DNA of 62,449 bases, counting the filler, from Basidiobolus ranarum (Eukaryota), in NCBI GenBank assembly GCA_040143965.1. It is 22 parts of 22 records of this genome, joined end to end, with 100 filler letters (N's around TTAATTAATTAA, not from the genome) between each part and the next. Parts side by side here need not be neighbours in the genome. Positions count along the whole stretch, not along the records: positions 42,711 to 45,448 come from JASJQH010003020.1; 21 more parts are not named here. One strand, given 5' to 3'. The position numbers and the translations under genes are program-made. The notes under the pieces are model-generated. The model worked only from the letters and a program-made list of their open reading frames with translations. It had not been told where the DNA came from and did no database searches. Numbering within the stretch: position 1 is the stretch's first letter; each line of letters starts with the position of its first letter. Positions 42,809-42,890 of the stretch are shown here, piece after piece.

Positions 42809-42890
42809 GGTGAGATGGCCGAGTGGTCTTAGGCGCTGCGTTCCGGTCGCAGTCTCTTCGGAGGCGTGGGATCGAACCCCACTCTCATCA
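42809..42890 (+). tRNA. tRNA with a Leu(CAG)-type class II body but anticodon CCG (variant or pseudo-tRNA)
   Basis: Acceptor GGTGAGA/TCTCATC plus A73. A box TGGCCGAGTGG. Anticodon arm CTGCG-TTCCGGT-CGCAG. Long variable arm CTC-TTCG-GAG. T arm GTGGG-ATCGAAC-CCCAC. T-tract terminator follows. Confidence 0.9.

Follow-up and report, generated by a model that had tools for sequence, protein, structure and literature searches.

Is a fungal tRNA gene that combines the body of a leucine tRNA with an anticodon for arginine a working device for putting leucine at arginine codons, or a leucine tRNA gene on its way to being lost? The question is raised by one gene with the anticodon CCG (hereafter the CCG tRNA) in a 62,449-nt stretch of Basidiobolus ranarum DNA (assembly GCA_040143965.1), which as a whole is called the window. 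The window is made up of 22 unrelated contigs, ordered from the longest (2754 bases) to the shortest (2732 bases) and separated by N44-TTAATTAATTAA-N44 linkers that return about every 2.85 kb (e.g., 42611-42710 and 45449-45548); joining them creates, as artefacts, any feature spanning a linker and any neighbourhood beyond ~2.7 kb. One ORF of the window is 100% identical to an NCBI protein of B. ranarum encoded on a 2745-base contig, and for two further families the best named homologues are likewise from Basidiobolus. The original prediction had put the gene forward as a candidate natural mistranslating tRNA. With a probability of roughly 0.6, we read it instead as a dispensable tRNA-Leu(CAG) gene copy under relaxed constraint that is decaying or has been disabled. 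This reading is favoured because of changes at otherwise fixed positions, damaged neighbours, the lack of a second copy in the window and the databases scanned, normal CGG usage, the cost that an active copy would carry, and the rate at which tRNA body and anticodon are known to disagree.

A class II cloverleaf with the anticodon CCG

ARAGORN called an 82-nt tRNA-Arg(ccg) at 42809-42890 (+). The Rfam tRNA model RF00005 aligned to the same interval over model positions 1-71, scoring 48.1 bits (E 4.3e-09) with zero non-standard pairs flagged; the gathering score of the model is 29, and the whole-window Rfam run at gathering threshold had filtered this tRNA out. For comparison, a 23-nt segment that spans the D stem to the anticodon arm, with position 35 set to N, was used to query genome_contigs, a database of prokaryote-labelled assemblies. 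The segment had 54 matches in 50 stretches, and every one of them (54/54) carried CAG. ARAGORN called 52 of the 54 tRNA-Leu(cag), and these form our reference set, comprising 13 eukaryote-type genes (11 distinct) and 39 archaeal-type genes (18 distinct), none known to be fungal. The parts of the gene are as follows.

42809-42890, plus strand: class II tRNA gene with anticodon CCG, Leu(CAG)-derived (ARAGORN, Rfam, pair check, alignment to the 52 tRNA-Leu(CAG) genes)
42816-42826, plus strand: A-box region, tRNA positions 8-19, TGGCCGAGTGG (sequence; U8, A14, G18, and G19 as in 52/52 references)
42830, plus strand: T at tRNA position 21, usually A (A in 51/52 references; mismatches a conserved A of the Rfam consensus)
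42843-42845, plus strand: anticodon CCG, which reads CGG (Arg), with C35 at 42844 (ARAGORN, script check; A35 in 54/54 arm matches in genome_contigs)
42854-42863, plus strand: variable arm, a 3-bp stem CUC/GAG closing a UUCG tetraloop (script check; same hairpin in the energy fold)
42869-42879, plus strand: B-box region, positions 52-62, GGATCGAACCC, with A54 (42871) and C60 (42877) (T54 and T60 in 52/52 references; both mismatch the Rfam consensus)
42895-42919, plus strand: candidate RNA polymerase III (pol III) stop signals, TTTCTTT at 42895-42901 and T5 at 42915-42919 (sequence; putative function)

A script check found all 23 cloverleaf pairs to be standard (7 acceptor, 3 D, 5 anticodon, 3 variable arm, and 5 T), including one G.U pair in the acceptor stem at 2:71, and placed U33, G37, and A73 together with the T at position 21 (42830) and the A at position 54 (42871). 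The variable region is 13 nt long, with its 3-bp stem and tetraloop, and the body is therefore not the class I type with a short variable loop that belongs to tRNA-Arg(CCG). TGGCCGAGTGG agrees with the pol III A-box consensus. An unconstrained energy fold did not return a cloverleaf and was no better than shuffles (z -1.74), a measure that is uninformative for tRNA. A UUCG tetraloop in the variable arm is also described for yeast tRNA-Leu(UAG) (PMC9976931).

Within positions 6-66, the CCG tRNA differs from the 13 eukaryote-type genes only at positions 16, 21, 35, 54, and 60 and in the variable arm, and position 16 is polymorphic among the 13. In the acceptor stem, the differences run from pair 2:71 to pair 6:67, with pairing kept throughout. 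Across the full reference set, A21 occurs in 51/52 genes and A35, T54, and T60 in 52/52; the bases of the CCG tRNA at 35, 54, and 60 were found in 0/52 and its T21 in 1/52. By contrast with these four sites, U8, A14, G18, G19, U33, G37, C56, A58, and A73 agree with all 52 references, and U55 with 51. The gene thus shares with the Leu(CAG) type the long variable arm, A73, and the homology of its D, anticodon, and T arms, and departs from it in the CAG anticodon and at A21, T54, and T60. Because all 54 arm matches carry CAG and the core differs from the eukaryote-type genes at few positions, the CCG tRNA is, as judged from its sequence, a descendant of a Leu(CAG)-type gene.

These results bear out the structural part of the original prediction, which had described a fully paired cloverleaf with a long variable arm, A73, and G37 (all 23 pairs and the named bases were found), an arm one base, 42844, away from the usual Leu(CAG) arm, and a T-tract downstream, here TTTCTTT followed by T5. 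It had also listed T21 and A54 as non-consensus, which they are, and C60 (42877; T in 52/52) is an additional odd base that it did not list.

One set of references is of interest in its own right. A 638-base contig in a bacterial metagenome-assembled genome (L034, 198-602 on the minus strand) carries, at intervals of 160 bases, a tandem array of three eukaryote-type tRNA-Leu(CAG) copies; one has T21 and a T-stem defect, and another has an acceptor mismatch. It illustrates both how array copies drift and how eukaryotic sequence can end up in a prokaryote assembly through binning.

No other CCG copy was found. Within the window, neither ARAGORN nor comparison among the 22 contigs gave a second one; the 23-nt arm segment, again with position 35 set to N, had no matches in viral_contigs and no CCG matches in genome_contigs, and a scan of metagenome_contigs for bases other than A at position 35 likewise had no CCG matches. 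A single metagenome match (L001) proved to be a CGG variant on a GC-rich contig where ARAGORN calls no tRNA, and it was set aside as irrelevant.

The contig and the meaning of CGG

The following features lie on the contig of the CCG tRNA.

42711-45448, no strand: contig carrying the CCG tRNA, 2738 bases, with TTAATTAATTAA linkers on both sides (N-run table)
42797-42805, plus strand: ACAACCAGG motif, ending 4 nt before the CCG tRNA (motif count)
43325-43333, plus strand: ACAACCAGG motif, overlapping the first base of a tRNA-Pro (motif count)
43333-43404, plus strand: tRNA-Pro(CGG), 47.2 bits, with C at the position of G18 and a U.U mismatch at 29:41 (Rfam alignment, ARAGORN drawing)
44578-45448, plus strand: subtilase pseudogene (S8, proteinase-K type), with ATG at 44578, an intron at 44714-44782, and its end beyond the contig (Pfam PF00082, 1s2n_A, paralogue alignment)

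Two of the three other visible features of this contig are damaged. The tRNA-Pro(CGG), which starts 443 bases downstream of the CCG tRNA, is probably impaired, given the base at the position of G18 and the mismatch in its stem. The subtilase has a signal-peptide-like start and, when read with X at its stops, matches 1s2n_A in the PDB (E 2.1e-37). It belongs to a large Basidiobolus family of at least 13 full-length members, and was aligned with 13 of these paralogues, 10 from B. ranarum and three from B. meristosporus. An in-frame TAA at 44968 aligns with Q in 12 of the 13 and with K in one, an in-frame TGA at 45073 aligns with G in all 13, and a deletion of four residues (in-frame, 12 bases) lies immediately before the TGA. 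Replacements of R by C (TGT), G by D (GAT), H by Y (TAC), and G by R (AGA) fall in invariant or near-invariant columns. The S8 reading frame extends over 220 codons without a frameshift, and of the six point changes inferred in it, all but one are C>T or G>A. Among annotated proteins, no 100% match to the pseudogene was found, the best being 88% identical and from the Basidiobolus family. Because of the two in-frame stops, the deletion, and the replacements at fixed residues, the gene at 44578 is, on its alignment, a pseudogene. A variant genetic code was considered as the source of the in-frame stops and rejected, given that TAA stands against Q/K and TGA against an invariant G, next to a deletion and replacements at fixed residues.

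The ACAACCAGG 9-mer upstream of both tRNAs occurs three times in the window compared with 0.35 expected, and one of 100 shuffles reaches three. No tRNA follows the third copy, at 48511-48519 (-). Beyond ACAACCAGG and a short ATATTT, no flank homology was found between the two tRNAs. ACAACCAGG may serve the tRNA genes of this fungus as an upstream element. No similarity was found between the tRNA contig and the 21 other contigs of the window, with which it shares nothing, and it holds no meaningful internal repeats; an origin of the CCG tRNA as a short interspersed nuclear element or other repeat was rejected on these grounds.

Whether CGG still stands for arginine was read from the protein-coding genes. 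Among the Arg codons, CGG is the least used in 13 long open reading frames (ORFs) of the window, at 8/102 Arg codons and 8/2878 codons overall. For four of these eight, an alignment column could be assigned; the remainder are three in a 586-amino-acid ORF, for which a homologue search returned only the self match, and one in a tnp2-like ORF. In an ORF resembling lytic polysaccharide monooxygenases at 19961-20425 (-), the CGG column holds K, R, or Q, without L, in Basidiobolus and other close homologues (25 aligned), while distant ones vary. In the ORF at 4338-4787 (-), with 34 sequences aligned, the first CGG column holds R in 27 and K in three, and the second R in 17, K in eight, and L in one. 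The subtilase CGG column has R in 13/13 paralogues. Because all four testable codons (4/4) thus fall at Arg-type positions, in columns dominated by R or K, a reassignment of CGG to leucine is rejected as far as four codons can show, and the genes here are, by these alignments, written with CGG as arginine, which would be compatible with rare misreading.

Competing explanations

U54:A58 and the 8-14-21 contact hold the elbow and core of a tRNA together. In the course of events that we favour, a nuclear tRNA-Leu(CAG) copy of B. ranarum would have acquired an A-to-C change in the middle of its anticodon, turning CAG into CCG, together with at least three others at Leu(CAG) positions that are otherwise fixed (A21 to U, U54 to A, and U60 to C), in a small locus under apparently relaxed selection beside a damaged tRNA-Pro and a dead protease gene. 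The copy would not be needed and would be silent or yield a weakened tRNA. Because those contacts maintain the elbow and core, any leucine inserted at CGG would be negligible, and the gene would be a decaying or attenuated copy rather than a working recoding device.

Several lines of evidence point this way. Fixed bases are lost at 21, 35, 54, and 60, as is characteristic of tRNA pseudogenes, and the L034 array copy with T21 and a T-stem defect was counted toward decay as well. A54 is described as a signature of initiator tRNAs that is absent from elongator tRNAs (PMC3950347), and G18:U55, G19-C56, and U54:A58 are reported to matter for leucylation in Escherichia coli (PMC9976931). In a study of yeast tRNA-Leu anticodon variants, 45 of 58 non-Leu ones slowed growth, those with Arg, Pro, Gly, and Ala anticodons were among the most harmful, and transformation failed altogether for two of the Arg variants, GCG and ACG (PMC11028032). 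Given this toxicity of Arg-anticodon variants, selection would be expected to act against an active copy. Disagreement between body and anticodon is reported for up to ~5% of predicted tRNA genes (>95% agree), and in the fungus Serpula lacrymans the disagreeing predictions are described as resembling pseudogenes (PMC8450103).

Other observations weigh against decay. The broken structure or sub-threshold score typical of a pseudogene is not seen, with 23/23 pairs formed and 48.1 bits against a gathering score of 29. A single random substitution would keep all pairs with a probability of 0.537, and three to four hits would do so in 8-15% of cases. The A-box region, U33, G37, A73, G18, G19, U55, C56, and A58 are intact, and T-runs follow downstream. 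ACAACCAGG upstream of both tRNAs may be a working promoter or start-site element, and its being shared weighs somewhat toward genes that were active at least once. Three of the four unusual bases in the tRNA are transversions, compared with mostly C>T or G>A in the S8 pseudogene, although this contrast lacks significance (Fisher p 0.19; p 0.048 if position 60 is left out). Finally, since no reference is known to be fungal, it could be usual for a Basidiobolus Leu(CAG) gene to have U21, A54, and C60.

The intact cloverleaf and the promoter-like boxes would also suit a tRNA that inserts leucine at CGG at a low level, with U21, A54, and C60 as second-site changes that tone down a toxic molecule. 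Leucine identity in eukaryotes is attributed to A73, acceptor stem pairs, and the large variable region (PMC9976931, Table 1), and the anticodon is dispensable for the eukaryotic leucyl-tRNA synthetase (LeuRS): in humans, a Leu-CAA variant with A35C gave W>L peptides (PMC11028032). In yeast, A35 and G36 are described as only marginal for leucylation in vivo, though important in vitro (PMC9976931), and the harm done by 45 of the 58 non-Leu variants speaks for the same view, as does the mention of weakening secondary mutations as a way to tame toxic variants (PMC11028032). The rarity of CGG among the Arg codons of the long ORFs fits too, since the Leu-derived nev-tRNAs likewise match rare codons (PMC3333845). 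Set against this are the lack of any conserved or second copy in the window, viral_contigs, metagenome_contigs, and genome_contigs, the decaying neighbours, and the place of Arg-anticodon Leu variants among the most harmful in yeast (PMC11028032). In addition, nev-tRNAs, conserved and expressed as they are, gave no mistranslation in the whole-proteome analysis reported in PMC4300185, and the U54:A58 contact that matters for leucylation in E. coli (PMC9976931) would be affected. We consider such a working mistranslator unlikely.

Capture by the arginyl-tRNA synthetase (ArgRS), which would recognize C35 and G36, charge the class II body with arginine, and leave a harmless extra tRNA-Arg(CCG), is more doubtful still. 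The listed eukaryotic ArgRS determinants U20, C20a, C35, and G36 are all present (PMC9976931, Table 1), 30 eukaryotic anticodon shifts between amino-acid families are reported, mostly via position 35 (PMC3923123), and in Caenorhabditis brenneri class II tRNAs with CCU and UCU are described as the sole tRNAs for those Arg anticodons (PMC3333845). However, A38 is also listed for eukaryotic Arg, where the CCG tRNA has U38, and the single copy and decaying neighbours count against capture as well. That Basidiobolus keeps and expresses this tRNA with its elbow weakened by U21, A54, and C60, giving either low or conditional leucine at CGG or a takeover by ArgRS, is on balance decidedly improbable. 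Least credible is a base-call or assembly error in an ordinary, or ordinarily decaying, tRNA-Leu whose true anticodon is CAG. The gene does lie on a contig of 2738 bases among short leftover contigs, but an error would have to strike one particular base and would leave the unusual 21, 54, and 60 in place. The adjacent S8 frame, with substitutions and one in-frame 12-base deletion over 220 codons and no frameshift, is unlike error-prone sequence, and by our own estimate real mismatches of anticodon and body (up to ~5% of tRNA calls) are far commoner than errors in polished assemblies.

A dispensable Leu(CAG) copy that is decaying or disabled therefore remains our preferred reading. The suggestion that the tRNA might insert leucine at CGG or be charged by both synthetases stood on sound LeuRS and ArgRS background, but it becomes a minority reading in a context that favours decay. 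The caveats attached to it fared better: a pseudogene, which the original prediction had called quite possible, is favoured by the unusual 21, 35, 54, and 60, the damaged neighbours, and the lack of a second copy in the sets scanned, and its remark on decaying genes in the same contig is borne out by the damaged tRNA-Pro(CGG) and the subtilase pseudogene.

Other window features and known systems

Elsewhere in the window, AT-rich fragments resembling eukaryotic 28S ribosomal RNA lie at 38462-38601 and 39519-39760 (-), scoring 69 and 72 bits, on a contig that also carries a copia-like gag; the alignment at 39519-39760 extends over a linker. Both have the appearance of decayed ribosomal DNA pieces. 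Most contigs of the window share repeats at 70-94% identity (e.g., 37030-39770, 54052-56784, and 59718-62449), including copia-type gag/integrase ORFs and a pair of tnp2-type transposase ORFs interrupted by a stop, and this repeat-sharing part of the assembly is repeat debris. At lowered thresholds, ARAGORN drew a very AT-rich, 97-nt 'tRNA-Phe(gaa)' at 58750-58846 (-); it is absent from the Rfam matches and is probably a false call.

Among known systems, nev-tRNAs come closest. Their class II bodies derive from tRNA-Leu and bear Gly, Ile, Arg, Lys, or Pro anticodons; they are reported to be expressed and to be leucylated in vitro (PMC3333845), and as in the CCG tRNA, the anticodon of another amino acid sits on a Leu-derived class II body and matches a rare codon (PMC3333845, PMC4300185). 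LeuRS is expected to charge them with leucine, and C. brenneri has Arg members with CCU and UCU. The CCG tRNA likewise carries neither a Leu nor a Ser anticodon on its Leu-derived class II body. The nev-tRNAs differ in being described as conserved across nematodes, often multi-copy, expressed, processed, leucylated, and related to Leu(UAA), whereas of the CCG tRNA gene one copy is known, which lies a single step away from Leu(CAG) and has extra changes at fixed positions. To our knowledge, an expressed CCG tRNA, whether a Leu inserter or captured by ArgRS, would, if true, be the first nev-tRNA-like case in fungi. Were it active, a fungus would naturally possess a tRNA violating the codon table at CGG, and with it a tractable system for how mistranslation is tolerated or exploited and for an identity switch by a single anticodon change. 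Our literature search for a natural tRNA-Leu(CCG) found none and turned up just an engineered tRNA studied in vitro and an unrelated text.

The human Leu-CAA-3-1 variant shows the same A35C type of change, with misincorporation of leucine (Davey-Young et al. 2024, PMC11028032). In that account, the human variants, which are rare and come from the population, and the 64 engineered yeast anticodon variants have otherwise wild-type bodies, to which the CCG tRNA adds U21, A54, and C60. Eukaryotic anticodon shifts provide a broader parallel, in that body and anticodon disagree, mostly through position 35 (Rogers and Griffiths-Jones 2014, PMC3923123; PMC13010820; PMC8450103), and leucine backbones are reported as frequent carriers of isotype switches in Caenorhabditis. 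Published shifts were accepted only if syntenically conserved in another genome, whereas the CCG tRNA has been seen in one genome. The mismatched tRNAs of S. lacrymans resemble it in their changes at conserved positions and in their repeat-rich or poorly assembled fungal setting (PMC8450103). From ordinary tRNA pseudogenes, it differs in being fully paired and scoring 48 bits, such that a score-based pseudogene filter probably would not flag it. As the evidence stands, the locus offers a snapshot of a Leu(CAG) copy one step past its anticodon change, with fixed elbow positions already hit, a pattern expected if toxic alleles of this sort are soon put out of action or come about only where the copy was dispensable beforehand. 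The CCG tRNA belongs to a known kind, the tRNA gene whose anticodon has shifted off its isotype, and is most likely a gene copy being lost.
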